From the NCBI GenBank assembly GCA_047967505.1, contig CM106538.1: 64,000 bases of DNA. One strand, 5' to 3'. Of this stretch, positions 19,452 to 44,336 are shown in pieces. The stretch comes from Dipteris shenzhenensis (taxonomy: Eukaryota). Within the stretch, counting starts at the first letter, position 1. Each line of letters opens with the position of its first letter. The translations under genes and the position numbers were made by a program. The notes below the pieces were generated by a model that saw only the letters and a list, made by a program, of their open reading frames with translations, searched no databases and had not been told where the DNA came from.

Positions 19452-20032
19452 AGGTAATTGTTTGCTTGGGTGTAGCCATTTTTGGTGAGGTTCAGGGACA
19501 ATTCTGTAAATAGATATCTTGCCTGACCCATAACTTATGCATTGCTCAACGGAATTCGGCAAACTTTGTCTTCAAGTTGTAGTACACATTCCAAGCTTGA
19601 ACATGAGAGAAAAAAATTATAGAATAATGATTTGGAATGAGATCTCATTAAAGCATTACAAGTGCTATGTTGCATGTGAAGCATGCATCCTGAAGACTAT
19701 AAGATATAGCAATTTATTAAAAAACATCAAAATTTTGTTCTATACATACATGCAACCAAGTAATCATTCAAAAGTACACTATGTGAGCTTCTCCCTCAAC
19801 CCAAGGACACACCTAAATGAGATAATTATGCATGGGTTAATGGGCCTCAATTGTTGTGCTAAAGTGATGCATACCCATTTCAGGGCACGCTCCATAACTT
19901 TTTTTTTATTTGTTGAAAACCAAAACGGATTGAAAATTTGGAATCCAAACTATTGGGACTAGTGCATGGTGGTCTTAAAACATTGATAGTTGTTGGTATT
20001 GGTATCTATATTTACCCTAAAATGGAAGAAGT
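19452..20032 (+). repeat. Left terminal inverted repeat of Sola2 element
   Basis: Begins AGGTAATTGTTTGCTTGGGTGTAGCCATTTTTGGTGAGGTTCAGGGAC; the inverse is at the right end. Confidence 0.9.
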
Positions 20033-24460: not shown

Positions 24461-25370
24461 GAAATGGCAGCCCAAAGGTGACATTTCTACATTATTAAAT
24501 GGCACTTTCTTGCTGCCATTTCCACATGTGCCATTTATTGGAAATGGCAACCAAAAGGGCCATATATTTTTGCCATTTCTATGTCCATAATGGCAACCAA
24601 AAGTGCCATATATTTTGCCATTTTTACATATGAAATGGCAACTAAAAATGCCATATATTTTTGACATCTCCACATATAAAATGGCAACCAAGGGTGCCAT
24701 ATATTTCTGCCATTTTTGTTTCTAAAATGGCAACCAAAAGTGCCATGTATTTTGCCATTTTTATTTATTAAATGGCAACTAAAATTGCCATATACTTTTG
24801 CCATTTCCACATGCAAAATGGCAACCAAAAGTGCCATATATTTTTGCCATTTTATGTCTTAAATGGCAACCAAAAGTGCCATATATTTTGCCATTTTTTT
24901 GTATGAAATGGCAACCAAAAGTGCCATATAGTATTGCCATTTCTACATGCAAAACGACAACAAAAAGTGCCATATATTTTTTCCATTTTGATGTCTAAAA
25001 TGGCAACCAAAAGTGCCATATATTCTGCCATTTTTACGTATGAAATGGCAACTAAAGTGCCATATAGTTTTGCCATTTCCATAATCAAAATGGCAACCAA
25101 AAGTACCTTATATTTTTGCTATTTTTAATGCATGAAATGGCACTACATTTGAGACCAACTGTGAAAGAAATGGCAAAAGGTGACATAAAACTTATGTTTG
25201 AAATGGCAAAAGGTGACATAAAAATTGTCACTTATTATATTCAAAATGGCAAAAGATGACTTAAAATTTGCAAGATTTCACGTTGAAAATGGAAATAAAG
25301 TGACATACAAAATGTCGGTTATTATGTTACAAATGGCAAGAAATGGAATCACAATTGCCATTTCTTATTT
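24461..25370. repeat. CACTA subterminal repeats (AAATGGCAACCAAAAGTGCCATATATTTTGCCATTT, ~47-bp period)
   Basis: More than a dozen units with inverted AAATGGCA/TGCCATTT motifs next to the CACTA end. Confidence 0.9.
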
Positions 25371-26676: not shown

Positions 26677-27664
26677 TGTTAGCCGAAAAAGAAATCAAGA
26701 CCAGAGGCTAGAGGATAGCTATGGCGACGCTCAAGGGCCATAGAGAAAAGGAGAACGTGAGGGCAAAACATTATCATGGGAGGGGAAAAGGGATTAGAAG
26801 GGGAGGGAATGAAGAGGGAGACTATGGCACAAGCGGAAATGGAGAGGGGGAAGAGAAGCATGCACATGAGGGGAGGAGGAATGTAAAGATGGAGACATCA
26901 AGGGAAGAGGGCCATGCTTTATTTGAAAGGAAGGGAAGGGGGAAATCAAAGTACTAGCTAGGTGGCTTTACAAGAATGAGCCTTTTCCATCAAGGAATAG
27001 CCCCCTCCTTTTATAGCCAAGAGAGGGGGTCTCTCCCAATAAATGCATCCTCCCACATGCATGGTGTGTGTGGAAAAGTCTCCCATGTGGGCTAGGCGGT
27101 TACACACTCTCAATTGTGTGCAACAACACTTTGCCTCATTTTTCCACATAAATCAAGCCCCATATCTCAAGTCTATGATACTCCCTTGGTCTCTTCCCAA
27201 TTTTATAATATGTTGCAACCTCTAGGAGGACAAGTGGAGGGTTGGCACAAGGAATCTTGCCACCTCATCCTACTTTCCCCATTATTTAACTTGCACTCTT
27301 GGACCTTCTATACCTCCCCCACATGGGCCTATCCTATATGGAGGGAATAACCCAATATAATATCCATCTCCACCTATTTTATATTACTTCTCCCATGGAC
27401 TTTGGGCCATATCTCACTAAATGCAGCCTAGGTGGAGGGGTGGCACATGGAGGAGCCATGCCACCTTACATTTTATAATATTACTACCATGGATTATGTA
27501 CATCACACCTTATGGGTCCTCTTACGTGGAAGGGTGGCACATGGTCATGCCCTGCCACCTCAACCCTGGGCCCTATGGACACCATATTTTATTATACTAT
27601 TACCACACATACAAACACACACTCATATTTATGCCTTTTTCCTTAGACAAATTTATCCATAACA
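26677..27664 (-). repeat. 3' LTR of gypsy element (~990 bp)
   Basis: TGTTA...TAACA termini adjacent to the PPT. Confidence 0.8.
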
Positions 27665-30600
27665 ATCCCCCCCCCCAGGCAGGGAATGCACAGCATTTCC
27701 ATGCCTAGGTCCATCATGCACAAAGAAGGGCTTGAGGTAATGCTTGTTGATCACCTTCTTGCCATATGGCTCATGTAGCTCCTGAACTTGTACATACCCA
27801 TTGCTACGTTCCTTGATGACTTTGTATGGACCAGTCGACAGTGGTAGAAACTTCTTATCCATTTGGTGGTCCAATCTGTTATCAAAGCATAGCACAACAT
27901 CCCCCTCAGCAAAGCGTCTTTCCCATCCCTTGTGAATCTTAGCATCCAAGCGGTCCTTTAGTCGATTCTTTTGGATCTCTGTTTGATGTAGTGCAAGGCA
28001 TCGGGTTTCATCTAACTTCTCAAGTTGTACCAATCTAGCCTCTACATGTTCATCTTCTGTCATCCTCTGTTCTTGTGACAATCTCAAGGCTGGAATCTCT
28101 ATCTCTAGTGGTAAAACTTCCTCAGTTCCATACACCAACTGAAAAGGAGTGTGACCTGTAGACATTTTATGAGTGATGTTGTAAACCCACACGGCTTCAG
28201 TGACCTTCTGATCCCATTGGCTCCGATTCCCTATGGCCATTTTTCCCATGGTTTTACAAAGGAGGCCATTGGTCCGCTCTGTTTGACCCATGGATGCTGG
28301 ATAATAGATGCTAGAAGTGTGATGATCAATACCCATGCGATCCATGAGTAACTCCACTACTTCATTTAAGAATGGACTCCCATATGGGGTCCATGGGTGT
28401 CCCAAACCTTGTGCAGATACGTTCAAATATGAAATTTGAAATTGCCTTACCATTTGCAGCGCGTAGGGCGATAGCTTCAACCCACTTAGTGACATACTAA
28501 GTGGCTACCAAAAGATACTTCTGTTTTGGGCAGTCATGGGCAAGGGCCTGACAAAATCTATTCCCCACTTCTGAAATGGATGGATGGACATCACTGGGTG
28601 ATGTTGCCCTGGACGCAAATCTTTCCTACCAAAGAATTGGCATGGTTCACAGGTTTTTCAATACAAAGTGACATCCTTGAACAAGGTCAGCCAATAGTAT
28701 CCAGCATGTAAAATCTTCTTAGTTGTATAGTCACTGGCATAGTGGCCTCCACAAAATCCATCATGATAATGCTTCAATACCTTAGGCACTTCATCTGCAT
28801 CAATGGCCCATCTTAGTACCCCATCCATGTCTTGACGGTACAACACCCCATCAAAGAGGGTGTAGCGCCTACTATCTCTGTGGATCTTCTTTCTCTCATA
28901 GCTAGTACTTTCTAGAGGAAAGGAGAAAGCAGTCAGAAACCTGTAGATACCACCATACCATGGATCCCCAACTTCTATGGCCGCTACAAGGGTTACATCA
29001 AGGCACTCCTCTAAATCAATCAAAGGATTCTTCAAGTTGGAACAACCCCCTTTTACAATTTTGAAAGAAAAATCATATTCTTGTAGAACTGCCAACCATT
29101 TGGCCAACCGGCCCATGGGATTTGGTTATTGAAGAACTTGTTTTCCAAGACCAGTGCTAGTGAGTATAATGAAGGACTTTCCAGCCACATAATGCTTAAA
29201 TTTCTCAATGCAGAACACCAAAGACAAGGCATGCTTGTCAACCTCTGAATAGCATCACTCAGTGTCAAGCAATTGTCGAGAAGCAAATCGAACAGGATAC
29301 ATGAACCGATCCTCCCCTTGCTGGAGAAGAATACCTGCCAGAGTGTGATCACCAAACCCAGGATTGATATAGAAAGTCTTTGACTAATCTGGATTGCGTA
29401 GAATGGGTTCTGAAGCCAGAGCATTCTTGATTTGTGCAAACCCATGATCACAATCCTCATCCCAAGAGAAATCAACCCCATCTTTTAATAGCATAGTCAC
29501 GGGTCATGTCAAAGCAGCATATTTATCAATGAAGCGGTGATAGTATCCTACTAGATTGACAAATGAGCATACCTGACGTTTGGCTGTTGGTGGGGAGAGC
29601 TTGAGGATGGCTTCTACCTTCTCGGGGTCAGGCTTGACGCTCTCAGATGAGACAATATGTCCCAGTAACCTCCCTTGAGTGGCTCCAATGGTGCATTTCT
29701 CAGGGTTGAGACTGCCATTCGCATCATTGACCCTTTGGAAGGCCAACCTAACCTTCATGACATGCTCCTTACGTGATGAGAATATACAGAAATCATCTAA
29801 AAACACCTCCAAGAAATCCCCCAAATAAGGAGCAAACACCATCGGCATAAATCTTTGAAAGGTAGCAAGAGCATTGGTGAGGCCAAACGGCATTACTTTG
29901 AATGCAAATGTCACCCAGGGTGTGGCAAATGTGGTTTTGAGCACATCTTCTTCGACAATTCTGATTTGATAAAACCTGTAGTAACCATCACAGAAAGTAT
30001 ACATCTCATGACCACTTACCTTCTCAAGAATGAGGTCTTGAAAGGGAAGAGGATGATGGTCCCTCTTGGTGGCTGCATTGAGTTTCTTATAGTCGATGCA
30101 GTCCCGCCACTTGTTGGTTTTCTTTGGGATAACTACCACTGGTGAAACCCATTCAGTTTTGTGAATTGGAACAATAAACCCAGCTTCTACAAGTTTCTAC
30201 AACTCTGAGCACAAAGCATCAATCTATAGGGGCCCTTATCTTCGATACTTCTAAGCCACAGGCTTTGCATCAGTTCAGCTCTATCTTGTGTTCTATCGCA
30301 GTCACATGGCGAAGGTGGTGGTAGCTAGTTGCGAAAAGGTGAGGAAAATCTCTGAACATTTCTAGGAACTCATCTTTCTCACTTGGAGTGAGGTCTGGGG
30401 AAAGCATAGATTCAAGCTATTGAGGACTAGCTATTACCTTTTCTGTAGGTGGCGGGGTCGGAGACACCCCCATCATGTAAACTTCCTCCTTTGAGAACTC
30501 CTCCCCCCCGTCTGATTCTTCCATTGATTCAAACACCGAGGATGAGAGAGTATCACTGTCTTGCTCCTCTTCTTCTTCTGGTTCTGTGGCACCTGGTTGC

Positions 30601-31650
30601 ACTGGGATCTTCTCCTTAGAAGCACCAAAAGACACGTGTCATGTCTTCTGATAGCTGACTGCATCACTCTTTCTCAACCATGGTCTCCTGAGTATGGCTG
30701 GGTAACTCTTGCCTGTATCTTGGATGTCCACTACATAGAAATTGACGGTGGTGGTCAACCCATTAACAATGATGGGCAAATCCTCAATGACTCCCAGGGT
30801 GGCGAGTCGGTGACCATCTGCTACCTGGATTCGAGTGGAGGAACGCCTTATGCATTTCAAATTCAATTTCTTCATGATTCGAGGCACCATGATATTACAT
30901 GCAGCTCGCCCATCAACACACACACTTTTGACATGACAATTATCTATGATGACATCTACTATATGTGGGTGCCGATCAATTTCTTCGGAGATAGAAGATA
31001 CCTCTCATACCTTTCCCTTTTTCTTGCTCCTCCTTGTTGAGAGCCCTTGCTGTAGCTCACATCTTACCTTATGGCTTAATGCTATTAGTTGAGGGAGCGT
31101 GATACTCAAAGACCGATGAGCAAGGTCCTGAATGACCAAATAGTCCTCTTGCCCTGAGCCAATGGGAAAATCCGAGGGCGACCACTTACTCCTATGGGAT
31201 CTTTTAGTCTTCTCTATTGGTGGGTTTGCCATCTCAGCATCTGAGGGCTCTAAGAAGGACACCTTCTTCCTAGGGCGGCCTAGTCCACAGTTTGGAGAGG
31301 GGTCCGAGGTGGTACGACTTCTTTTCCTAAGGTCAAGGATCTCTACATCAGAATCATCAGTGCAAGATTCACTTAGAAGATTCACCCTTGGAATATTGGG
31401 GCATTCCGTGCAATAATGACCCTTCTAGTGGCACTCGTAGCATACAACATTAGCACGGTCCCTTGGAGGGCAGTTGGATTGATTTTTGATGCCCACCCAC
31501 ACCATCTCAAGCCGAAGATCATTCAGGGCCTTGGCTAGGTCATTCACTCCAGGTTCTGTTGCAGAGGGGGCCTCTTTAGCTGGAGAAGGGCGCACATGGC
31601 TAGGTGTATGGATCTGCTATGCATAAGGAGGTCCCATCACACCAATAGAA
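26677..31650 (-). mobile_element. Non-chromoviral Ty3/gypsy element (gag end, PR, RT, RH, INT, PPT, 3' LTR); 5' part missing, that boundary approximate
   Basis: Minus strand: CYECH*KGHYCTEC, VDGRAACNIM (PR), MPFGLTNA and FLDDF (RT), GRLAKW, GQTERTN and GPYKV (INT). Poly-G PPT at 27667-27676. LTR 26677-27664. Confidence 0.9.
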
Positions 31651-34258
31651 TCATCACTATTAAATACGAACCCTGCCCTTACAAGGGCACCCCTCTCATC
31701 TACAGTCATTGATGTCCCACTTGCAACCTTCCATACACTTGGAGAGACCCCAGGAACACCTTGAATGGATTTATCCACATTCCATGTATGGGTGACAGAA
31801 GTATTACAAAACCATACAAACTGCTCTGTCACTCCATGAGAATGTTGCCTTCTTCCCTTAAAACAAGGGGCTGGCACACCATAACTTGCACTTCTACCAA
31901 GTGCATTGATTAGTGCCCCACATCGTCTCTGACTCTCTGCCAAGTAGCCAAAGCATGTGACAACGCTATGTGGTTCAGTTCTCCTGATCGCCCAATTGGC
32001 TTCATGAATATCTATCTCTCTACAAACCATGTCCTGTGATGGACTTTTAAAATCAATTTGTCTTCTTTTTCCTATCACTCTCCTTGTTGTCACTGTCATG
32101 TATTCTGGTCGATGATTATCATTTGCATGGACCGATGTTGAACATTTTGAACCCCTCTTTCTTCTTATGCTCACCGGTTCTGTTATTGGCCTATTCATCT
32201 CAGGAGATTATATCCCACCCTCTTCAATCACTATGTGTGATAAATCCACAAGCCTATTTCTGTCCCCTTTACCAGACCCACTACCATCAAGTATTCTTCA
32301 CCGGAGAGCATCCAAATTTGGTCCTGTACCCAAGTGTCTTCCATTCATAAAGGAATTGTAGTGGGAACTCTGAAGGACACTCATTGCAAGATCTACTGCA
32401 CAAGCATCATGCACAAGCATCATACAATGTTATGTGTTTTGCATATCCATGTGCTGCTCTCATGCTAGAATGTTTTGTCTCTGAAAGGTTCACTGTAGGA
32501 ACAAATCCAGAGTGCTCTTCTTGCTGCAAGAACATTCCCCCCCACTGGTTGACTCTAACATCCCACCAAGCAAGCCACGTATGCAATGTTGGTAGCTCAC
32601 CTTCCTTCACATGAATTGGGGACCAATACAAATTCAATGTTTGTTTGCATTGGTCTGCAGAAGTTGAAGTTGTTGCCTCTCTCCACTTCCGACATAGAAG
32701 TTTATGCTCCTCCTGAAATTGTGGCTTAATGCATCGTCTGGTGTGCTCAACCATGCTCATCTCCCAATGGAAAACACAAGTTCTTTCTCTACCATCCATC
32801 ACATTTTTTGGTCCCCCATTGTAAACAGTGCGGACAGCCAGCCAATTTGCTCCTGCTCCATCTGCCATAATCCACGGAATTCAGGTTTTTTTAAACCATT
32901 CTTCTCCATTGTATTGTTCAGTAGCTCCTAGAATCGAACTTGAGCATGGTTATCCTCCACCTTGAATTCACATATTGCTATAGTTAATAGTTCCCTTATG
33001 AATGGGTCATACACATGAGCACCCATTGTTGACCATCCCCTCACTCGATGGACATGGTCAAAATGAACCCATTGTGATCCCAAGCTCCCACCAGGCCGCA
33101 TGCGATTCACTAGATCAACTCCTGATCCTGGACCAATGGTCGACATTTTGAAGATATGTGGTTGTTGTTCATCTTGCAATTGTTCCTGAAATAGGATACT
33201 TTGTAGGTATGGATATTTGCATCTCCTCTTTAAATCAAGTATTGAATCCATTCCACCATCCCCTCCTCTAGCCTCACTTCTTGCGCTCTGCACCACTCTC
33301 TGAAGCCTCCTTCTCTGGGTCATTGGTGTAATGGTTTCAAGCACTTCTTCGAACTTGTGATCATCTAGCGGCTCCACAACAACCCCATCCTTTGCTAGCA
33401 TCATCTCCATCACAAGGTCTTGTGCCACAGACACCTCGATATTTTTGCAAGAGGAATTTCCATTCAACCTTGCACGCATTGAAATGAGATCATCAAACTT
33501 GCATTTCCTTTGCTCGACTTCTACCTTTTTCAACTGGATGGTCATGGAAACCCACATGCACTGCGCATCTTGTTGTCTTCACTCGTTCATGGGGAAAGCA
33601 ATAATATATAATAGCACTGCATAGGTAAACACACTCTGGTATTGCATCACAATGCTTGCACATAAGTGACCCCAATGCTGGAACCAGGTAGAGGAGGTCT
33701 CCTAAGATTTCCTTTCCATTGTGTATCATTTAAAACTCCCATTCGTTCAAGGAAAGGACAATCCAAATTACAACATCTCAAATAACCTGAACATCTACTC
33801 ATTCTCACAACACCATTGAAGTAGTCTTGCGAACATGTGGAATATTTTGTCCAAACATGACCATCAGCATTCTGTTCCATTCCAGACATTGGTGAACCCT
33901 TAGGCATAGGTGGAAGTTCGAAGACAATATATCCATCATAAGTTAGAGGAAGCTCAGTAACCTTCTCCACTCGAACTGCAGATTTGAGCGCAACATGAAG
34001 AGAACTATTCAAAGGCATCCTCTCTATCAGTGAAACCACACTATTTAGTTCATGATTCATAAAGTCACCATGAGAACCTCTTTTATAGGGCATGTGAACT
34101 CTTAAGGTTGATTGTTGGCTACCACTAATCTTGAACCCTTTCTGACCATCCTCTAAGTTTACCACTGGAAGTACAATGGCAAGCTCATCTATTCCGATTT
34201 CTTGATGCAGCTCAATGTCCTCGTTCTCAATGTGAAAGTGTTCCTTAAGCTCCACCAA
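31617..34258 (-). pseudogene. Mutator-like (MULE) DDE transposase with N-terminal GCM/WRKY-like Zn domain, decayed
   Basis: HFDHVHRV (D1), MADGAGA (D2), TCVFHW (CxxH) and TVNLSE (E); N-terminal RCSGYLRC..C, CKHC and H.GFHDHP. Confidence 0.75.
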
Positions 34259-37200
34259 TGAAACCTCTAGGAAAGGAGTGTCAAAACCTCGTCAAAACGA
34301 ATGGTCAATGATTCGTGTTCTCCAAAGCGAATGAAAACTGAGAAAGGCATGATTCAAATGCTAGAGCCAAGATGTAGCACCAGACGACACCAACCAAAGA
34401 ACAAGAGAAAAGCTAGCTACACAAAAGGTCCAGAAGCAGGGAGGCAAAAGAAGAAATGGCATAGATGTGTTGGAGACCAAAGAGAATGGAGCAAAGAGAA
34501 GTGTTGAAAGAGCCACTGAGAGGGATTATGGGAGAGAAGAGAAGAAGCAAGTTCGTCTCTATAAGTGTCAAATGCAAATGGATGTCACTATTAGCATCCA
34601 AGGTGGTCGTTTAACTGCAAGTCTTTATTGAACAAGATGTGTTTATTTGTTTAGAATAATGGTAATCTTTGAACAAGATGCCTTCATGCATATAGTAACT
34701 TGAATGACGCCTCCATGCATTTCATTCAATAAGGGTGTACATTTAATATAAATGAATAAAAAGAGAAGTAACTTTGAAATTTATATAATTGAAAGACTAA
34801 AATATCAAGAAAAAAATTAAAGATTTATAATTACTATATTTTACTAGTAATAGTTAGAATGAGTAGTATCTTCAAATCCATATCTAAAATGAAAACTATC
34901 AAAACGTGTTAGTTTACTTCACATTTGCATGAACGAGCAATATTACTATTTCCATCATGAGTCATTACAAGGTGTTCTCCTCACTATTACAAGGGTTATG
35001 CGGTTTCTGGCGTTACCCATACCCACGTCTTCTCCTACCGTCTAATAATGACCAGGCCTGCAAAATCTGATAAAATCGTTTCTCTAAAGGCTAGGCCTAC
35101 CATCGACTGAGCGTTGGGCGGGGTGACAGGTCCATTGGAATTCGAGAGGAGTAAATGCTGATGAAACTGATGGAAAACATTGGCTCGTAAAAGAAGAGGA
35201 AGATCTCAAGAAGCACGCTCCAGCATCCACATTCCAGAGTCTAGTTGGTAGCTGGTTGATAATGGAAACATAAACCCATAAGGCCACTCCACTCAATTGC
35301 TTTTTCAATTGCTCCTTTTCGAGGAGAGCCATTCCTTGTCTGAACGGTGCGAAAAGGAGTCAGCGATTCTTTCACAGAGGCTAAACTTTCTATCCAACGA
35401 TCATTTTCGAGGCATCACGTTCTTCGGCGAAGTTGGACCTCAAGATGCCCATCCGTGATCAATCACGAACAAGATCATACGTGTTAATCTGACCACGAAG
35501 CGAAGCGATATTTCGAAGCGATAGTTAGGAAACCGATGCGAATCCTTCAATATTCTTTCGAAGCGAAGCGAAGCGATATTCTTTTGGCGTTGTTAGGAAA
35601 CCGATGCGAATCCTAAACACAATCCTAAACGCTAGGCTTTCGGCTCGTTGGAGCTTGTTCTCACCATCTCTGGGCTACGTCCTACACCACACCACTCATT
35701 TAAATTTTGGGCTTCCATTTTCATGTGCAACAGCCATCTGTTGCAACCAAATGGTTATTAGCTGCACGTAATCACGAGCTGTGCACCCTACTTATAGCAG
35801 CAAAGGATAAGACCTACAAAACTTCGGCATTGTCATGTGCCTGTTTTAAAGCAACTCAACGCTCCTGGTATTAGTGCCCCCTTTGAAAGAAATGCACTGA
35901 AATGTTTGGCTGCAAACAATTCACTACCGCTCGAAAGCAATTCACTACTATTCATTACAGGGTCTAAAATGTTTGGAAACATACTACATGTACTATACGG
36001 TAAAATAGGGCAATTTCGGAATGTGGATTCAAATTGGAAGTTGACACGAAAGTGTTAACCTCTCTTTTAAGCAACTGCTTCAACATATTCTCTCCAATTC
36101 AAAAAAAGTTTGTGTGCTGTTGGAATGCGTCAACGTTAACTGACAATATATATACACAGATAGAGTCGGCCAGTAGCAATTAAAGACCAACAAGCCAACT
36201 CATACAAGTGTGAGGCTTCCTGGCGGAGGAATGGTAACAGGAGGGGATGATTCGCCTTTACTACCTCTGTAGAGATCTTCACTCTTGGTGCTTAATCAAC
36301 CAACGTGTGATTCTTCCTCGATATTATCCTCGCATGGCTCTATGTCTTTCGTTTTCCATATTTCATGAATCGAAAAACATTCTTGGGCTGAAATGTCAAT
36401 AATTAGGATGGCCAGCGAAGGTGATCGAGCGCGATGTAAACTGCAAGGGCTGCAACGAGGACCGAAGGATGTCGCTCTCTCTGTGTGCTCTTGCGCTGGT
36501 CTCTCCTAGACACCGAACATCAATCAATTCCTGATCTCTCCTAGACACCGAAAACTTGCGCTGGTCTCTCCTAGACACCAAAAACTCTCGAGCAATCAGT
36601 TCGAGCATGGTTCCTCGCTACTGCAAGCTACTTTCAAGCAATATACAATTGTTCTATAACAATATATAAGCTCAATTGTTCTTTGCTAGATCCTCACTTC
36701 TCGCGTGCTGTGCAAAACACTCTCTCTCGCTCGCTTGATCTCCTACTCTAAGTCTCACTCTTTTTGTGCCAAAAAGGACTTCACGTTAGAGCCCTTTTTG
36801 CTACCGTCGGCGTACCTTCTACCCGTTGCCGACTCCACTGCTCTACTTTCGCATGCTGCTACTTTCGCGCTCCATTTACTCTTGTCTCAGTAACGTGGCT
36901 CGTTTTGTCTTAGTAACACCGCCTCACCGCAAAGCCGCCTCACCGCCTCCTCACCGCTTCACCGCCTCACCGCCTCCATCCTTCCTTCCTTCCATAGTCA
37001 TTCTGTCCATAGCTCTCACCTCATCGTCTGCTCCATCTTCCTATCTTTCTCTTCGCCACCTTTCCTCTTTGCCACCTCGTTTCTCTTCTTCCTTCGCTCC
37101 CTTCTCCTCACCATGATATCATAGTATCTCTCGTTGCTCTTGTGCCAAAGCTTTTCTTTCACATTGATGGACCTCCTTCGTAACAAGGCGCACTGGTTAT

Positions 37201-37660
37201 TCTTTTGTGGCTTTACTCCACGTACCCGAGACCCCTTGTTTTGCTTCCTAGCCTCAACGACAATTTCTTCTCTGAATGGCATTCAAGGCGCGAGCTCCGC
37301 TGGCGGTGTGACCATGGGAGTGGATGGGAACTTACAAGGCAAGGCCACACAATCCGCATAGCTTCTGTTTCACCGATTGTAGCGATGGTTTCCTCGTCCG
37401 CAAGAGCACGTGCCAATGGAGCCGAGGCTTACCTCACGATGCCATTTCCATTTGCAAAAGATCAGAAGAGATAGAGAGATCGACTGCTCCTCACCGCCTC
37501 CTCCTCACCGCCTCACCGCCTTGGCTCCTCACCTCCTCACTGCCTCCAATCCTCACCTCCTCACCGCAAATCCTCACTGCCAATCCTCATTGACAAGTCG
37601 ACCTCATTGAAGGTTGGAATCCTTATCGTGTTAGAGATTCCATTCCTGCCCTCTCTTGGA

Positions 37661-38693
37661 TGTGGTGGCAGTTGGACTGCCTGGGGCAGCAAAAGAGGCA
37701 GCGCGTTAACGCGCTGCCTCTTTTGCTGCCCTAGGCAGTCCAACAGCCACCACAACATTTGAACCTGCCCCAGGCTATGGGATGTACGCCTTTCTGTATA
37801 GTCTAATTAGTCTGCATTTTGGCGTCGGATTTTATCTCCTCGGGCTCTTCACGACTTTTGCTTGCTCCATTTTGTTTCGTTACTCCATTTTGCTTGCGCT
37901 TCTCGGTGGTTGTTGCTTAGGACTCGATGGTGTTCACAGGTTTTTTGTTGACTTGGTTGTGTAGCAGCCCGAGGTATCATTTCATTTCATAGGACTTGCC
38001 GTCAAAAATTTGTGCCCATATTCTACAAACCATATATACGAGGCATGTATGTGGTTGCTAGAGTTACCCAGAGTCATGCAAGGGAGGGGAACTTGGACTG
38101 TGGAGGGCAGTAAAAGAGGCAGCGCGTTAACGCGCTGCCTCTTTTGTTGCCCCAGGCAGTCCAAGACCCTCTCCCATGTGAGGCATTCAAGTGATATTCA
38201 ACTCTTGAACGGATGAAAGAAGTTCACAAAACAAATGAGCGAGTGCAAGTCCAATGTTCAAGCGTAGAGATAAGAGGAAAATTTTTAGGAAACCTTGTAG
38301 ACCATCGGCATCTAGGTAGCATTTCGAAGACAGTCCTATTTATGCTCTAGAATTGCATGAGAGACCAAAAGAGACAGCGCGTTAACGCGTTGCCTATTTT
38401 GGTCCCTCGGGCAGTCCAATAGTCCCCTCCTTGCATAGCGATCAAAAGACCATGTGACCTATCCCTCCAAGAGTCCAATAGCATTCCAAAGACCATAAGA
38501 CCTGTATACCAAAGCATACTTGGAGACAAAAGATGAAATGGTCGAAGCAACCTCTTGTGAGTATTGATACATGGAGGATTGAGTAGAAAAGCCTTGCTAA
38601 AAAGCCTTCATGAAAGACAGCTTGAGATGCCAAAAAGGACAGCGCATTAATGTGCTGTCCTTTTTCGCTTCTCAAGGTGTCTTTTCATGAGGG
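37661..38693. repeat. Array of four loop-less palindromes centred at 37707/8, 38128/9, 38383/4 and 38648/9
   Basis: Core CAGCGCGTTAACGCGCTG. Copy 1 is 94 bp with 2 mismatches. Outer arms differ between copies but stay self-complementary. Confidence 0.92.
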
Positions 38694-39247
38694 TAAGGGG
38701 TAGGCATAGAAGTGCATATTTGCCACTGCAATTCCATATATCCAAGTGTATAGATACCACTGCAAGTTGATATACTATGTGCATTGGAGATGAAACTTTT
38801 TCTTTTAGGACACAAGTGGGTGAATGTTCCCTAAACTGGAAATCAATTGCATTGGTAGATACATGTATTTTTGTCTAGATATGTAAAATGATATTTATTC
38901 ATAAGTGCGAGTTTACACACCTTTGCATTCATATATGTCAGCAGTTTGAGATATTTGTTTGAAGCTTTTTCCTTATGAGGTGTACACACTTCATTATCTG
39001 TTTGGGGCTTTGCCCTCGTGATATGTATTGCATATGTTTTCATAAACAAAACCTTTATCATATATATATGTGAAAAAGCTCTCATGTTTTTTTGAGCATA
39101 TGGAAAGATTTGAGAAGACCTTTGAACCTGCCATAGGTTATACTCTATTTGTTGTTACATGTTGTTTCTTGTTTTTAGTTTTGGTTTTTATTGAAAAGGT
39201 TTTGAGAACTATGATTGGAAAAATGCCTTGTTTTTTGTCTTTTCAGG

Positions 39248-42200
39248 ATGACATGAAAAAAAGGCAGAAAAGTTCAAGTGGCACATTCTACAAAGGTGAC
39301 AAGAGGAACAAAAGTAGATCACAATGTTGAATCATCAGTAGGTGGAACGGAAGAGCAAGAAAGTGTGGTGGGTCTAGAGGTTGAAGTATCATCAACTCAA
39401 AGAGATGAAGGTCCAAGAGTGGAGGAGGATGAGTTGGATGATAGTGAAGTTCAGGTGGAAGGAGGAGGTGATGTGATTGGCAAATGTAGGATGCTTGATT
39501 CAAACCAGTGTCCTCACATTCCCTTGTGTAGGTTGATACCTTATGCAAGAGTGAGGGGACTTCGTGATGATGTATCTTCACTCAAAAGTACATTTCAAGT
39601 GGAGGGCTATCTCCCAAAGAAAGGGTCTTTCATTGTATCTGTCTGCAAGAGTGATGGAGAGGAGATAGTTGTGACAGATGATATGAGGAAGAGTTGGTCT
39701 CCCACCTGGAGAGAGGTGGATGAGGAGTTTGAGAAAGATGTGATGTCTAACACTGACTTTCATTTTATGTCGCAAAAGATGTTATTTGTTTGGGAGGGCA
39801 ATCATAGGACCACTGCATGGATGAGTGTTATCAAGGAAATCTTTCCTACAAACAAGAAAAGACATGTACGAGTGGTATGCACAATAATTGACCCAAGGAA
39901 AATTAGTGAGATTGCTCTCTTGGCAGGGCTACAACGAATGAATTCGTAAGTACATGGACTCTTTGAATCTTCTCCACATTTGTGTTTTATGCTACTTTGC
40001 ATTTATTGATTGGGTTGTGTACTTTACTGTTTGTTTTCTAGCATGAATGAACATGCCATTATCAAACCCAGTCTAAGGGACATACTCATAAATGCACACA
40101 ACATTTGTGAGTGTGACTCTATGGTGTTTATGAAAACATTGTCTTCGAGTGAGATCAAATCAATAGAGAATTGGAGGGCTCAAGAGAGTAAAGGGAAGAA
40201 GCCATGGTTTCCATTGACAAGAGGTTATCTGGCAAGGCTTGTCTTCCAGGTAGAATGTTGCATTTGTATTGATGCTTACTTCTTTATCACTCCTTTGCTT
40301 TCTCTAATTGGAACTTATGTATGTAGGTTGAGTACAATACAGAGCTTAAAAAAGCAATGGACAAAATATCTACAAAGCTACCTTTAGATCAAAGAGGAGA
40401 GGCAGAAGGAAAGCAGCATACCATAATTCAAAAGAGAATTGCTGATAGGATGGGAAAGGTGTGAATTGAATTTTCTATACTTTGTTGCATTTATTTTGAA
40501 GTTAAGTGACTGACATGTCATCTTTGGATAGGTGTTGAATTGTATAGATCCTGGTCTTGGAGAGGCTTGGTTGGAAAAGTTGTTTGCCTTGCGCTTTGAT
40601 GGTGTGGACTCTTGCATGACATTGGAGAAGCTCCAACTCATTGCAAAGTATGATTTGAGATTAGAAAAAAAAAATATTTTCCTTTCTTTGTTAGAAGCCA
40701 CTAAACCTATGCGAGACATGTACTTCATGCCTGTGGGCGACCTTGAGTACAGAGGGTGTGTTTCTTCTACCAATACAAATCATCTTTCATGGTGTTTGTT
40801 TGTTTCTTGCCAATGACATGACTCTTATTTTTTTATTATAAAATAGCGTCAACTTTTACTTGTTTAGGTGGATTAGTAGAGAGATATTTTTGGAGAAGGT
40901 GGAGAGACAGTCATTGAAAGTGCTTGAAGATTTGAGGGTGATCACAACAATGGGCATGCCTTTGGATACCCCTAAGGATTACACATTGCAGCAATACATG
41001 GAGGATATAAAACTAGAGGGGAGAAAACATATGTTTGTGGTGCTAAGGTCAAAGGAAACAAAGATGGAGAGCAAGGGTGGAAAAAAAGGAGATGGACTAT
41101 CTGAGTTGGACATGGCTGCCCATAGGGTGGTTTATAGGTATGTTGTCAATTCATTCGAAGGTTCATTTTTCATTTGTCTATGTTTGTGCTATTGATTCAT
41201 GTAATTACACAATCATTGATGGTTGTTACACTTGATTTCTTGACCTTTTGATGGTTTGGGACATCCAATTTTTTTGTGTTTCTTGGTTGATAGATATCTC
41301 TCCCACTTGGCAATAGAGAAAAGGATCTCTGACATTCCAAATTTGTGCAAGATTTGGGTGGAGATTGGTCATGCTACATGCATGTATCCACCTGGCATGC
41401 ACCGTCTCTCTCAATGGGAATTAGCACATTGTCCCTGGTGGATAGATTTTCCTAAAGGACAAGTACAGGTGCGAGAAAGAGACTTGTACAATACTTATGC
41501 TTCACAAAAAGCCAATGAAGCAAGTAAGGACAAAGTGGAGGGAAGCTCAAGGAGAGATAAGAAAGAGAAAGAGAAACAAGAACATCCTACAAGAAAAGGT
41601 AAGGAAGATACAATATGATTGTTTGTTGATATTGTCTTCAATTTGTTTTGACATTGCATTAATAAGTTTATGATTGTTCTCTTTCTAGATGAGGGACCAT
41701 CTAGTCCTATGCGGCATGAAATGGATCACATAGAGAGTGCAGGTAAGGGTGTTGTTGTGTTCTGCATATGTAGTTGTTCCTTTAACACTAGTTTTACTTG
41801 TAATTAATTTGCTTTTGCATATAGGTGGAGAATCAATCTCGGGACTTGTGAAGCAATACGTGTTTCATCGATCACAGTCACCTGACATTTCCTTGGCCCG
41901 TGGCATCACACCTTTGTTTGCTTGTATAGTTGGAGATTACATTGCAATGGGCAAAGACTTTGCTGACTCTAAAAGAAATGATAAGTATGCTATTTTGCAT
42001 GAGTTTTTTATTACAGTGGCTAGTCGAGATCAGGACTACAAGAGAATGGGTAAGAAGGTGAAGTGGGCTTCAGATTTTATATTGCTCGATTTTCCATCTG
42101 GCTATCCACTTGATGAGAGAGGATCCACTCCTACTTGGAATGTCTTGCTGAGGACCATGTGCGGCATGGGCTTGCAGTTGCATCAGCTTCTTTGTCTGAT

Positions 42201-43092
42201 AGTGGTTGGTTGGCATGCATATGTCCTTTGGCAGGTAAGGCACAATAGCACAATTGACATTTCACATTTTTTGTTTCCATTCTACTAGTTTTAAATAAAA
42301 TTAATTGCTTGTAGGACAATGTATTGGTTGGATGGAACGATTTGCATATGTCCAGGGCTTGGAGGTTGTCAGACGTGTGATCATTCATGACAAGTTTCCA
42401 TATGGATTTTGTAGAGAACATGATAAAAGTGTTAAGGTAAGCTACCATTCCATGCATTCTATGTTTGCATTCCATGATAAAAGTGTCTTTGACAAATGTC
42501 TCCTTGTTAGTCCTATGCATGCTATGTTTGGAAGGATAAGTCCTATGCATGCTATCTTTGCCATCTTTCATGCTATAATGCTTGCTAGTTGAAGTCAATA
42601 TACTATACATGTTTTTCTCCATGTGGTTTCCAGATGCAATCTTCAGTATTAGCTCTAATACGTAGAGCAAAGAAGAATCCAATAGTTTTTTGGGAGGAGA
42701 GCTTTCCACTTTTCCAATAGCTTTTGATTGATCCACGTGAAGATGTCTGGACTCATTACATACCTCCCTCTGCAAGGACAATCGTGCCGATGTCTTCTCA
42801 GCTAGCACGAGGTGGACTAGAGAGGAGTAGTTTTTTTGTAGGTTGCATTATGTCTCTTCTCTGTGTTCCTGGAGGGCTGGTTCTAGAGATGGGTTGTGGT
42901 ACAGCCCCTCTTATGCATGCTTGTCAGGCCATTGGCAAGCCTTGTTTTTCATTTGATTCAGACAACGGTATTATGGCTAGCATTGTTGAGCCACTTGTGG
43001 CAGATCATTTTGGAAAACGAATCAGGTCAGAGCATGATGGAGAGGGGGAAGAAGAGAGAGTGGAACCTGTCACAAACCCCTTTGATGAGTAG
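39248..43092 (+). pseudogene. 10-exon ParB/Sulfiredoxin-like + beta-class N6A/N4C DNA methyltransferase-like gene (~960 codons; 2 stops, 1 frameshift)
   Basis: GT-AG exons in compatible phase: 39248-39945, 40042-40249, 40327-40458, 40532-40755, 40868-41137, 41294-41598, 41689-41742, 41825-42234, 42315-42436, 42634-43092. ParB-like IPLCRL..R..LKSTF..GY..FIV..VWEGNHR. MTase-like FILLDFPSG ... LSDSGWL ... ERS..VPGGLVLEMGCGTA..GKPCFSFD. Confidence 0.8.
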
Positions 43093-43850: not shown

Positions 43851-44336
43851 ACTACCTCCATTTTAGGGTGAATCTAGATAGCAAAACCAACAACTATCCA
43901 TGTTTTAAGACCACTATGCACTAGCCCCAATAGTTTGGATTCCAAATTTTCAATCCATTTTGGTTTTCAACAAATCAAAAAAAAGTTATGGAGCGTGCCC
44001 TCAAATGGGTATGCATCACTTTAGCACAACATTGGAGGCTCGTTAACCCATGCATTTTGATGTTTTTGAATAAATTGCTATATTCAATAGTCTTCAAGAT
44101 GCATGCTTCACATGCAACATAGCACTTGTAATGCTTTAATGGTCTCATTCCAAATCCTTATTCCATAATTTTTTACTCTCATGTTCAAGTTTGGAATATG
44201 TACTGCAACTTGAAGATAAAGTTTGCCGAATTTCATTGAGCAATGCATATTAAGTTATGGCTCATGCAAGATACCTATACATAAAAAAGTCCCTGAACCT
44301 CACCAAAAATGGCTACACCCAAGCAAACAATGACCC
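43851..44336 (-). repeat. Right terminal inverted repeat of Sola2 element
   Basis: Ends GTCCCTGAACCTCACCAAAAATGGCTACACCCAAGCAAACAATGACCC, the reverse complement of the left TIR. Confidence 0.9.

Follow-up and report, generated by a model that had tools for sequence, protein, structure and literature searches.

A palindrome array with a common core and exchangeable symmetric arms in a putative Mutator-like fern transposon

A transposon that brings along both an accessory protein and sequence-specific control sites of its own illustrates how mobile DNA can escape silencing while doing little damage to the host. The known example is that of the VANDAL elements of Arabidopsis, described as encoding VANC proteins that bind repeat arrays in the elements' own non-coding regions (PMC5735166, PMC10398659). 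Also described are M.BceJIV, a methyltransferase reported to recognise GTWWAC (PMC11380664), fusions of ParB-HTH with a Dam-type methyltransferase in chlorophytes and chytrids (PMC4738411), and the homogenisation of inverted-repeat arms by template switching, presented as an established mutational mechanism (PMC8604942, PMC7202029). Here we describe an apparently Mutator-like element of ferns that pairs an unusual type of site, long palindromes in which the core is fixed and the symmetric arms are exchangeable, with a gene of the bacterial-type N6A/N4C DNA methyltransferase fold. The palindromes form an integral non-coding component of this multi-copy transposon, and a literature search returned no report of a fern ParB-methyltransferase transposon or of such palindromes.

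Both the sequence itself and a repeat finder give four loop-less palindromes in the window, the 64-kb stretch of Dipteris shenzhenensis DNA that was analysed. They are centred at 37707/8, 38128/9, 38383/4 and 38648/9, with centre-to-centre spacings of 421, 255 and 265 bp. All four have the core CAGCGCGTTAACGCGCTG, with 0, 0, 1 and 3 mismatches, respectively; the unit is ~95 bases long with a perfect centre, and 33 of its bases make up the core in common, a conserved ~33-bp dyad of the form AAAAGAGGCAGCGCG-TTAA-CGCGCTGCCTCTTTT. The features of the locus are as follows.

31629..34321, minus strand: transposase-like pseudogene, divergent from the cargo gene; Mutator/MULE-like in appearance, with frameshifts and without the C-terminal SWIM part
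35001..38400, no strand: CpG-rich stretch between the two genes, CpG observed/expected 0.70-0.96 vs 0.31 for the window
37661..37754, no strand: palindrome copy 1, 47-nt arms, 45/47 complementary (96%); centre GTT/AAC, outer arms TGTGGTGGC/GCCACCACA
38079..38178, no strand: palindrome copy 2, 47-50-nt arms, 80-81% complementary
38345..38422, no strand: palindrome copy 3, symmetry confined to 38359-38408, ~25 nt per arm
38605..38693, no strand: palindrome copy 4, arms 89% complementary over 36 nt without gaps, or ~44 nt long if one indel is allowed
37755..38604, no strand: three spacers, 37755-38078, 38179-38344 and 38423-38604
39253..43092, plus strand: cargo gene, multi-exon, with exon matches to homologues and an early frameshift in the window copy

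Over its central 72 nt copy 2, read in inverted orientation, is 93% identical to copy 1, and the flanks of the two are unrelated. In copy 3 the left arm departs from the right one in its outer part (76% over 42 nt); because the outer part of the right arm is similar to copies 1 and 2 and that of the left arm differs, copy 3 looks like a hybrid (arm identities of 62% between its own arms and of 74-77% between its right arm and the arms of copies 1 and 2). Copy 4 has the most diverged core, with its three mismatches and the centre ATTAAT, and carries in it three non-CpG transitions, each mirrored in both arms; its outer arms are complementary to each other and unrelated to those of the other copies. 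The spacers, ~165-325 bp long, are mutually unrelated by similarity comparison. The initial annotation had already described four loop-less palindromes at these spacings, with arms of about these lengths in copies 1, 2 and 4 and unrelated spacers, and all of this holds, save that spacer 3 contains a local duplication of 43-59 bp.

Hairpin energies of copies 1-4 are -60.7, -42.6, -18.4 and -36.3 kcal/mol (z-scores -15.0, -10.4, -4.6 and -10.6). The 18-mer core occurs four times in the window against 0.00 expected from 100 shuffles, and the half-site AAAAGAGGCAGCGCGTT six times, always inside copies 1-3. Nine GTTAAC sites lie in the window, three of them in the palindromes. A palindrome scan of the 64 kb detected no other long palindrome, and self-BLAST no further copy. 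A 24-nt similarity between 37755-37778 and 39118-39141 was dropped as weak (E 0.08).

Symmetry between the arms has been renewed in some copies and is decaying in others. In the four-copy alignment 85% of cells pair, vs 39-47% with the partners slid, and both-sided changes are found in 22 of 47 pairs, a count that 0 of 500 shuffles reached. The compensatory pairs noted initially, AAAAGAGGC/GCCTCTTTT vs AAAAAGGAC/GTCCTTTTT and those of the outer arms, are present in the sequence. The arms of copy 1 are 96% alike within the copy and at most 83% alike to any other arm, those of copy 4 83% and at most 64%; in these two copies arm symmetry was renewed after the copies had diverged. Copies 2 and 3 show plain symmetry decay without renewal. 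The earlier proposal that symmetry is actively maintained is therefore right about renewal in copies 1 and 4 and goes too far for copies 2 and 3, and a mutational process can also bring about such renewal.

Conservation peaks at the palindrome centre, the reverse of what is seen at a transposon end. Over the inner 24 nt copies 1-3 are 75-100% identical to each other and 54-79% identical to copy 4, and over the outer 23 nt these values fall to 30-70% and 13-39%, respectively; outer arms of different copies are unrelated at 30-39% identity. Covariation across the copies, which the initial annotation had proposed to analyse, is thus borne out as two-sided change but not as a stepwise process: the outer arms have been replaced and did not covary gradually, and arm-to-arm template switching fits this as well as selection does. 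A fifth variant, in record 25 of sequencing run X4, has the 33-nt core between different flanks that are complementary to each other at 23 of 29 positions (hand count from the letters), so the pattern of the same core with new symmetric arms recurs, and symmetry has been renewed there too. Because the pairing of these flanks is imperfect, an assembly fold-back artefact is ruled out for this record.

The array is inherited together with its surroundings. At 80-99% likeness, the palindromes are covered by contigs of DNA runs X1, X3 and X4 (organisms A, C and D), as are spacers 2-3 and the start of the gene. Record 2 of X1 runs from copy 2 to copy 3, records 3, 4 and 7 tile onward into the gene, and spacers 2 and 3 are conserved in X1 records 2-4 and X3 records 15-18; the contigs of X1 and X3 thereby span palindromes, spacers and gene start in one series, and the linkage of array and cargo gene suspected at the outset is confirmed. 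Word depth, which is not copy number, is 23-51 over the array and 37 over the gene. By hand count, between-species substitutions amount to ~3-5% in the palindromes and 4-5% in the spacers; the palindromes are thus not less substituted than the spacers and give no sign of stronger constraint. The right flank of copy 1 is not covered by X1 or X3 contigs. Joints on opposite strands at the palindromes in the X1 and X3 contigs are usual assembler behaviour at perfect palindromes. Run X2, taken for RNA by guess only, covers 36531-36756, 37062-37338 and 39274 onward; the array lies outside this coverage, which is counted neither way.

Among 229 confirmed more distant transposase relatives, 80 loci (487 kb) were kept for scanning. 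They contain no match to the 18-mer core with up to 3 mismatches, no half-site and no similar palindrome array, so the module is lineage-specific rather than a hallmark of the family. One of these relatives, the metagenomic locus L037, has an unrelated hairpin-repeat cluster, and single palindromes occur in L038/L039, L043/L044, L049, L060 and L061. The exact 22-mer core GRCAGCGCGTTAACGCGCTGYC has 0 matches in metagenome contigs, viral contigs and 185,579 prokaryote genomes.

The gene on the left of the array looks Mutator-like (MULE/SWIM) rather than Sola2, the label it had first been given. This assignment draws on language-model look-alikes of residues 360-720 of homologue P0019, which are MULE and ZSWIM RNaseH-like clusters (scores 0.87-0.95), and on a SWIM finger in homologue P0018 (22.8 bits vs a cut-off of 19.6). 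No Pfam MULE match was obtained for the window ORFs at E up to 0.01 or for five homologues at E up to 1, and Protein Atlas scores of 0.80 for the window transposase ORF were uninformative. The window transposase is truncated at ~31.6 kb, where it adjoins a retroelement, and the window copy of the element, its transposase frameshifted and truncated, is dead. An inverted-repeat pair at 19453-20032 and 43851-44335 (90-92% identical) was rejected as the element ends, there being no TSD and the transposase being truncated at ~31.6 kb. In A. nelumboides the cargo and transposase homologues have consecutive tags on one contig (L7F22_040259 and L7F22_040260), and in L037 they lie side by side on opposite strands; judged by these arrangements, the gene pair is conserved.

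On the right of the array lies the cargo gene. Its ORF has 16 matches among proteins of Adiantum, a fern genus, 14 of them from A. nelumboides and 2 from A. capillus-veneris. Position 39253 holds the first in-frame ATG in agreement with the homologues, which places the array 0.56-1.6 kb upstream of the gene, in agreement with the 0.55-1.6 kb of the initial annotation; a splice-acceptor-like tract (ttttcag) lies just 5' of this ATG. The methyltransferase label of the cargo is upheld, at the level of the fold, by an AlphaFold2 model of homologue P0001 (mean pLDDT 72, with blocks mostly >85 over residues 260-535), in which the C-terminal part has the beta-class N6A/N4C DNA methyltransferase fold in the permuted order, catalytic motif IV before SAM motif I. 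Foldseek matches this model to CcrM at E 1.9e-12, and VIA-align gives Z-scores of 18.6 for M.BceJIV, 18.4 for MboIIA, 17.7 for CcrM and 16.4 for both PvuII and RsrI. A model of homologue P0006 built from 15 sequences has a pLDDT of 42.6. The catalytic motif, read by eye as DLPFG in P0002 and P0006, DFPPG in P0001 and DFPSG in the window copy, seems to depart from the canonical (D/N/S)PP(Y/F), DPPY. The N-terminal part has an EGNHRxxA motif, also seen by eye, which we take to recall the ParB/Srx arginine box. This motif is the whole basis of the ParB label first attached to the gene, a label that no library recognises: Pfam, PHROGs and NCBIfam contain no ParB family match to the cargo at E up to 1, and a sequence search of the PDB returned no ParB. 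In fold searches with the P0001 model the match lists were filled by the methyltransferase domain.

Palindromes 1-3 sit at the right edge of the CpG-rich stretch. CpG observed/expected is 0.61 for the array, 0.82 to the left of it and 0.31 for the window, and within the array spacers 1-2 have values of 0.76-0.81 and the palindromes one of 0.46. CpGs do persist in the core, as had been noted, and the whole of 35-38.4 kb retains them, so that the persistence is not core-specific. That the array lies in the most CpG-rich part of the window is compatible with a promoter-like, little-methylated region. The CpG-rich segment 36500-37552, covered by neither X1 nor X3, may be a lineage-specific insertion rather than a promoter.

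The explanation we favour, tentatively, is that the palindromes are candidate dyad-symmetric binding sites in an internal control region of the element. The palindrome module lies between two divergent genes of the multi-copy transposon, 5' of the methyltransferase-like gene, and its ~33-bp dyad would be the site for a dimeric DNA-binding protein that controls the element. This protein would most likely be encoded by the element itself, as the transposase or the accessory protein; a host factor recognising CGCG is also possible. The symmetry of the outer arms would result from arm-to-arm copying, by intramolecular template switching or hairpin-directed repair of quasi-palindromes, which would extend and re-perfect a palindrome outward from its centre, and recombination between cores would change the copy number and give rise to hybrids, copy 3 among them. 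Observation covers the layout of the array, its linkage to the element, the renewed symmetry of copies 1 and 4 and the methyltransferase fold of the cargo; the copying mechanism, the regulatory role and binding by a protein are what we infer. In favour of this reading are the inheritance of the array with the repeat unit, the conserved gene pair, the peak of conservation at the palindrome centre, the fifth variant, the renewal of symmetry, the VANC precedent and the CpG-rich setting. Against a binding site speak the 42-50-nt arms, which far exceed the needs of a protein site, the decay of copies 2 and 3, the lack of the module in the 80 distant loci kept, the dead state of this copy of the element, and the between-species divergence of the palindromes, which is not less than that of the spacers.

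Several of these observations would be expected if the array were functionless, a short palindromic seed having been duplicated locally and then extended and re-perfected by template switching during replication. The outer arms are symmetric within copies and unrelated between them, two of the copies are losing their symmetry, constraint between species is no stronger on palindromes than on spacers, the module is absent from the 80 distant loci kept, and homogenisation of inverted repeats by template switches is documented (PMC8604942, PMC7202029). What makes such a neutral by-product unlikely in our judgement is that one 33-bp core persists across five different arm contexts, and also in other organisms' contigs, that arm length is similar across copies (42-50 nt), that four copies within 1 kb hold a fixed place upstream of one gene, and that each of the three core transitions of copy 4 has its mirror image in the opposite arm. 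Quite unlikely is a transcribed array, for example in a leader of the cargo gene, whose 45-bp stems would be diced to siRNA- or miRNA-like RNAs acting on element or host genes. Perfect stems without loop or bulge are not known to be typical of canonical plant MIR genes, and here the conserved part is the loop-proximal 17 bp rather than a 21-24-nt stem segment; self-targeting siRNAs would moreover silence the element. The stems are very stable, the tract before the ATG makes an upstream leader exon conceivable, and Rfam returns miRNA-precursor-like matches, of which mir-550 scores 47.9 bits and mir-548 scores 44.4 bits, but these are far under the gathering scores of 81-90 bits (81 for mir-550) and occur on both strands, as for any long hairpin, and nowhere in the window does an Rfam match reach its gathering score.

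We consider it improbable that the palindromes are cognate targets of the element's methyltransferase-fold protein that keep the internal promoter free of host 5mC silencing. A protein dimer would then act on the 33-bp dyad, through 6mA or 4mC at or beside GTTAAC or through mere occupancy, and the arms would favour presentation of the site as a cruciform or hairpin; if true, this would be VANC-like anti-silencing by way of a horizontally acquired bacterial-type DNA methyltransferase in a plant transposon. Four insertions of tiny foldback MITEs, each made of two abutted terminal inverted repeats, would account for the size of ~94-100 bp, the hairpin shape and the restriction of the similarity between copies 1 and 2 to the palindrome (93% over 72 nt, between unrelated flanks), and the uncovered right flank of copy 1 agrees with them. 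This origin is already disfavoured, and we hold it to be highly improbable: no copy has a consistent TSD of 2-11 bp, even when its boundaries are moved by as much as 4 nt in either direction, conservation lies at the centre and not at the termini, the 64 kb contain no copy elsewhere, and palindromes and spacers are co-inherited in the contigs of other organisms. The initial annotation had found no evident TSDs and had named dispersed, TSD-flanked foldback MITEs as what would speak against it; within the window neither TSDs nor dispersed copies are found. The CATG seen at copy 2 belongs to the palindrome. An array of abutted MITEs was rejected as well, the arms of one palindrome being 96%/83% alike vs 77% and 49-57% for spacer-unit ends, and for abutted MITEs sharing TTAA or TA there is no further half-site to close the outer units. 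Least credible of all is an array of parS type, known from bacterial plasmids, that would serve a ParB-like protein as centromere or loading site and lead to CTP-dependent spreading or partition. Palindromic multi-copy sites do adjoin a gene with the EGNHRxxA motif, which by eye resembles the ParB/Srx arginine box, yet parS is 16 bp long vs ~95-bp units here, ParB families are detected in the cargo neither by the three libraries (E up to 1) nor by sequence in the PDB, and it is not evident why a transposon integrated in a eukaryotic genome should need partition. In its favour is also the precedent of ParB-HTH/Dam-type methyltransferase fusions in chlorophytes and chytrids (PMC4738411).

If the sites and the methyltransferase-fold protein are functionally coupled, the element would reveal a new means for a plant transposon to manipulate DNA modification, and it would also supply a natural module for sequence-targeted modification of DNA. 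Should it have no function, the array still offers a clean natural example of how palindromes are renewed in a large plant genome.

Among known systems, bacterial parS and KorB-operator sites resemble the array in dyad symmetry and in their several copies near a gene said to be ParB-like; the fern units are several times longer and stand in a eukaryotic transposon, a ParB domain is undetected by libraries, and the 22-mer core has no counterpart in the prokaryote genomes searched. Foldback MITEs and MITE-derived hairpins such as the mir-548 family are alike in size and perfect hairpin shape, a likeness reflected in the sub-threshold mir-548 and mir-550 matches, whereas the fern palindromes lack TSDs, are conserved at the centre, are undispersed in the window and are co-inherited with spacers and gene. 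Template switching at quasi-palindromes, as described in PMC7202029 and PMC8604942, explains mirrored substitutions and renewed arm symmetry without selection; it is a mutational mechanism and not a functional class, and leaves core retention and the position of the array unexplained. Sites of beta-class N6-adenine methyltransferases provide a further parallel, since the GTTAAC centres of copies 1-3 fit the GTWWAC reported for M.BceJIV (PMC11380664). This enzyme is the top structural match of the cargo methyltransferase domain. MboIIA and CcrM, which have other specificities, are tied with it to within Z 1-2, and the fold does not give the specificity; copy 4 has ATTAAT at its centre, and 6 of the 9 GTTAAC sites in the window lie outside the palindromes. 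The VANDAL/VANC system, as described by Hosaka (2017) and Sasaki (2023), differs in that VANC targets are tandem repeats of a motif, whereas the fern units are ~95-bp palindromes separated by unrelated spacers of 165-325 bp; the fern accessory protein is unrelated to VANC. The fern element, which looks Mutator-like, shares with VANDAL, as far as those descriptions go, an element-encoded accessory protein; both have repeated, fast-diverging arrays in the element's own non-coding regions, and both are linked to the state of DNA methylation, in the fern putatively through the methyltransferase-fold cargo and the CpG-rich surroundings of the array.

Four loop-less palindromes, centred at 37707/8, 38128/9, 38383/4 and 38648/9, are found in the sequence from 37400 to 39400 by inspection and with a repeat finder, and their centre-to-centre spacings of 421, 255 and 265 bp are those reported in the initial annotation. 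The palindromes (copies 1-4) and the two genes to which they are related below are as follows.

37661-37754: copy 1; arms of 47 nt, complementary at 45/47 positions
38079-38178: copy 2; arms of 47-50 nt, 80-81% complementary
38345-38422: copy 3; ~25 nt per arm (38359-38408), the outer left arm without a match to the right arm
38605-38693: copy 4; arms of 36 nt, or ~44 nt with one indel, 89% complementary over 36 nt
~39253-43092, + strand: accessory (cargo) gene, multi-exon, from tblastn with Adiantum homologues
34321 to 31629, - strand: transposase-like ORFs matching ~1050-aa proteins at 37-59% identity, with frameshifts

The array is far above chance expectation. Four matches to the 18-mer CAGCGCGTTAACGCGCTG are present, at 0, 0, 1 and 3 mismatches (0 expected from 100 shuffles), and all six occurrences of a 17-nt half-site lie within copies 1-3. 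Single-strand folding energies of copies 1-4 are -60.7, -42.6, -18.4 and -36.3 kcal/mol, with z-scores of -15.0, -10.4, -4.6 and -10.6. When the four copies are aligned without gaps, 85% of cells pair, compared with 39-47% when the partners are slid, and both sides have changed in 22/47 pairs, which none of 500 shuffles matched. Scanned for palindromes, the full 64 kb yielded this array only, and self-BLAST found no further copy of it in the window. As the initial annotation had stated, none of the copies is flanked by a consistent target-site duplication (2-11 bp), and the spacers are mutually unrelated, save for a local duplication inside spacer 3.

Comparison of all eight arms shows that copies 1 and 4 had their symmetry renewed once the copies had diverged, while that of copies 2 and 3 is simply decaying. 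The two arms of copy 1 share 96% identity and neither exceeds 83% with any other arm; for copy 4 the corresponding values are 83% (gapped) and 64%. The right arm of copy 2 is 83% identical to copy 1 versus 81% to its own left arm, and that of copy 3 is 74-77% identical to copies 1 and 2 versus 62% to its own left arm. Identity among copies 1-3 is 75-100% over the inner 24 nt and 30-70% over the outer 23 nt (54-79% and 13-39% to copy 4), a centre-focused conservation that is the reverse of what a transposon terminus shows. From copy to copy, the outer arms are essentially unrelated, which means that they were replaced and did not covary step by step. Only a few point changes are truly mirrored: the core of copy 4 has three non-CpG transitions (AAAAGAGGC to AAAAAGGAC) whose mirror image stands on the opposite arm, and one CpG decay at the centre is mirrored, as chance alone would have it half the time. 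Of the proposal that symmetry is actively maintained by compensatory changes, the renewal in copies 1 and 4 stands; with plain decay in copies 2 and 3 and replacement of arms, it need not mean selection.

A fifth variant is found in record 25 of X4, a very small DNA sequencing data set from another organism, where a 197-nt contig has the 33-nt core at its exact centre. On each side, the 30 displayed letters are unlike all four window copies, and the flanks are mutually complementary at 23/29 positions (our count, contig comparison table 7). Such imperfect pairing excludes an assembler fold-back, and the record supports a pattern of fixed core and different symmetric arms. By eye, its left flank loosely resembles that of copy 3 (18/27 positions, 8-nt gap); if this tentative likeness holds, copy 3 would be a recombinant in which two types of arm meet at the core.

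The whole stretch was not found in a single public sequencing run; contigs of three DNA runs from other organisms (X1, X3 and X4) align to it at 80-99% likeness. In X1, copies 2 and 3 lie on one contig, in which spacer 2 is shortened by a deletion of 69 bp, and more contigs tile 38430-38663, 38634-39129 and 39186-39923; the tiling in X3 is as in X1, and X4 contains copy 3 (one difference) together with the left flank and left arm of copy 1. The contig series in X1 and X3 run from the palindromes into the gene, confirming the linkage proposed earlier and showing that palindromes, spacers 2-3 and gene are inherited as one. Word depth in X1, which does not equal copy number, ranges from 23 to 51 over the array and is 37 over the gene, as a single repeat unit would allow. 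Compared with X1, the window shows ~3% substitutions within copy 2, and the figure is 5% both around copy 3 and for spacer 3; it is 4% farther downstream and 2% for the coding exon (our count, table 8). No greater constraint on the palindromes than on the spacers is visible. Neither the core nor a comparable array was found near distant transposase relatives in 80 kept loci (487 kb; 26-48% identical) of 229 confirmed in metagenome contigs, and the module is therefore lineage-specific. Two of these loci hold structures unrelated in sequence to the fern core: a short hairpin-repeat cluster (L037:2155-2554, units like TTCAACTTTTGGCGTCAAAAGTTGAA) ~2.1 kb from a ParB-like fragment (L037:4660-5082), and a perfect palindrome with 29-nt arms and a 2-nt loop (L060:1172-1231) ~100 bp past the transposase match.

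Homologues of the ORF at 39278-39949, within the cargo gene, number 16; they are longer than the ORF, and every one comes from the fern genus Adiantum. The ATG at 39253, followed by a frameshift, is the first to match their MKKR start and lies 560 bp downstream of the array, in keeping with the distance first reported. The family is sizeable, with 350 proteins found at E up to 0.001 among 1.84 billion representatives, and matches no Pfam family at threshold; profile hits are weak, sub-threshold and confined to the C-terminal SAM motif. For homologue P0001, an AlphaFold2 model (147-row alignment) has a mean pLDDT of 72, residues 260-535 lying mostly in blocks above 85. Foldseek matched it to CcrM (E 1.9e-12), and VIA-align Z scores were 18.6 for M.BceJIV, 18.4 for MboIIA, 17.7 for CcrM and 16.4 for both PvuII and RsrI. 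The model supports the methyltransferase label, with a predicted beta-class N6-adenine/N4-cytosine DNA methyltransferase fold in the C-terminal domain; the catalytic motif, read by eye, departs from DPPY (DLPFG or DFPPG in homologues, DFPSG in the window copy), and activity is therefore only putative. The ParB label fares less well: no profile library recognises such a domain, and the name rests on an EGNHRxxA motif, seen by eye, which we take to resemble the ParB/Srx arginine box. Passages of one study describe ParB-HTH/Dam-type methyltransferase fusions in chlorophytes and chytrids (PMC4738411); our literature search found no report of a ParB-methyltransferase-type gene in a fern transposon.

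The transposase pseudogene lacks its last ~150 residues, and the window copy of the element is dead. Its homologue P0018 carries a C-terminal SWIM zinc finger (22.8 bits, cut-off 19.6). The family has no MULE hit in Pfam; language-model look-alikes of its conserved core belong to MULE-transposase and ZSWIM RNaseH-like clusters (scores 0.87-0.95), a lead and not proof. Given the finger and the look-alikes, a Mutator-like transposase is a better reading of the gene than the Sola2 type originally assigned. The cargo and transposase genes are divergent and 4.9 kb apart. Their A. nelumboides homologues have consecutive locus tags on one contig, and in L037, the one distant metagenomic relative with both genes (~30% identity), pieces of both are adjacent on opposite strands; the pairing is conserved. 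An inverted-repeat pair (19453-20032/43851-44335; ~480-580 bp, 90-92% identity) brackets 24.9 kb including both genes; no target-site duplication was found at this pair, which could be the element's long terminal inverted repeats or two copies of another repeat.

CpG persistence in the cores of copies 1-3 had been taken as a sign of maintenance. The CpGs are present, but their richness is regional and not specific to the cores, since observed/expected is 0.70-0.96 throughout 35001-38000 (the window's highest except one low-count bin) and reaches 0.76 and 0.81 in spacers 1 and 2 versus 0.46 in the palindromes. The window as a whole is eukaryotic in sequence and strongly depleted (0.31); copy 4, its central CpGs lost, sits where depletion resumes. 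The CpG-rich stretch is either promoter-like and little methylated or merely younger DNA, and since X1 and X3 do not cover 36500-37552, part of it may be a lineage-specific insertion. Taken as 35001-38400 (3.4 kb), it could represent a promoter island free of methylation or a recent insertion, and within it are CCTCACCG-type microsatellites (at 36917-36977 and 37487-37589) and a tandem repeat of 30 bp (36490-36586). Directly past the truncated transposase end, retroelement ORFs (27653-30139, - strand; reverse-transcriptase domain RVT_1, E 5.6e-22) are probably a nested insertion. Long direct repeats of 87-93% identity (524-2432/11438-13338; 3914-5713/62209-64000; 13790-15278/15288-16762) include a 1.5-kb tandem duplication and LTR-like pairs, and the window is a mosaic of repeats nested within repeats. 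Tandem repeats of period ~46 bp (80-86% identity) occupy 24533-25145, and a strongly skewed, C-rich low-complexity block (GC skew -0.7) lies at 57019-58361.

The array is genuine and unusual, and its tie to the cargo gene holds; the context looks Mutator-like rather than Sola2. The best-supported reading, still tentative, is that the ~33-bp dyad is a putative binding-site module, a recognition site that the element would retain in the region controlling its accessory gene, while arm-to-arm copying would maintain, replace and extend the long arms. PMC8604942 and PMC7202029 describe template switching that homogenises inverted-repeat arms. Such a mutational process could explain the symmetry by itself, and a functionless, self-renewing palindrome is an alternative of some weight, albeit unlikely. 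That the palindromes encode a hairpin RNA is doubtful, the Rfam miRNA-precursor matches being of a generic hairpin type and far below threshold. Still less probable is a foldback MITE: co-inheritance with spacers 2-3 and the gene in the X1 and X3 contigs, together with the missing target-site duplications, argues against independent insertions, as does conservation of the centre and not the ends. Partition sites of the parS type are very improbable for a cargo protein in which profile libraries recognise no ParB domain.

For the putative binding-site module, two leads bear on the partner, and both are leads only. Each half-site contains a CGCG element; such elements are bound by plant CAMTA and FHY3/FAR1 factors, making these candidate sites. 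The palindrome centre, GTTAAC, fits GTWWAC, given in PMC11380664 as the site of M.BceJIV, and could be a methylation site of that type; M.BceJIV is the top fold match of the cargo protein, but the leading matches are tied, and specificity does not follow from fold. The array deserves a genome-wide census and a check of long-read modification data. Its nearest functional precedent is the VANDAL/VANC system, in which, according to PMC5735166 and PMC10398659, proteins encoded by the transposons attach to rapidly evolving repeat arrays within the non-coding DNA of the elements and strip silencing marks; the array falls among known transposon-internal repeat arrays, as a new form of these.
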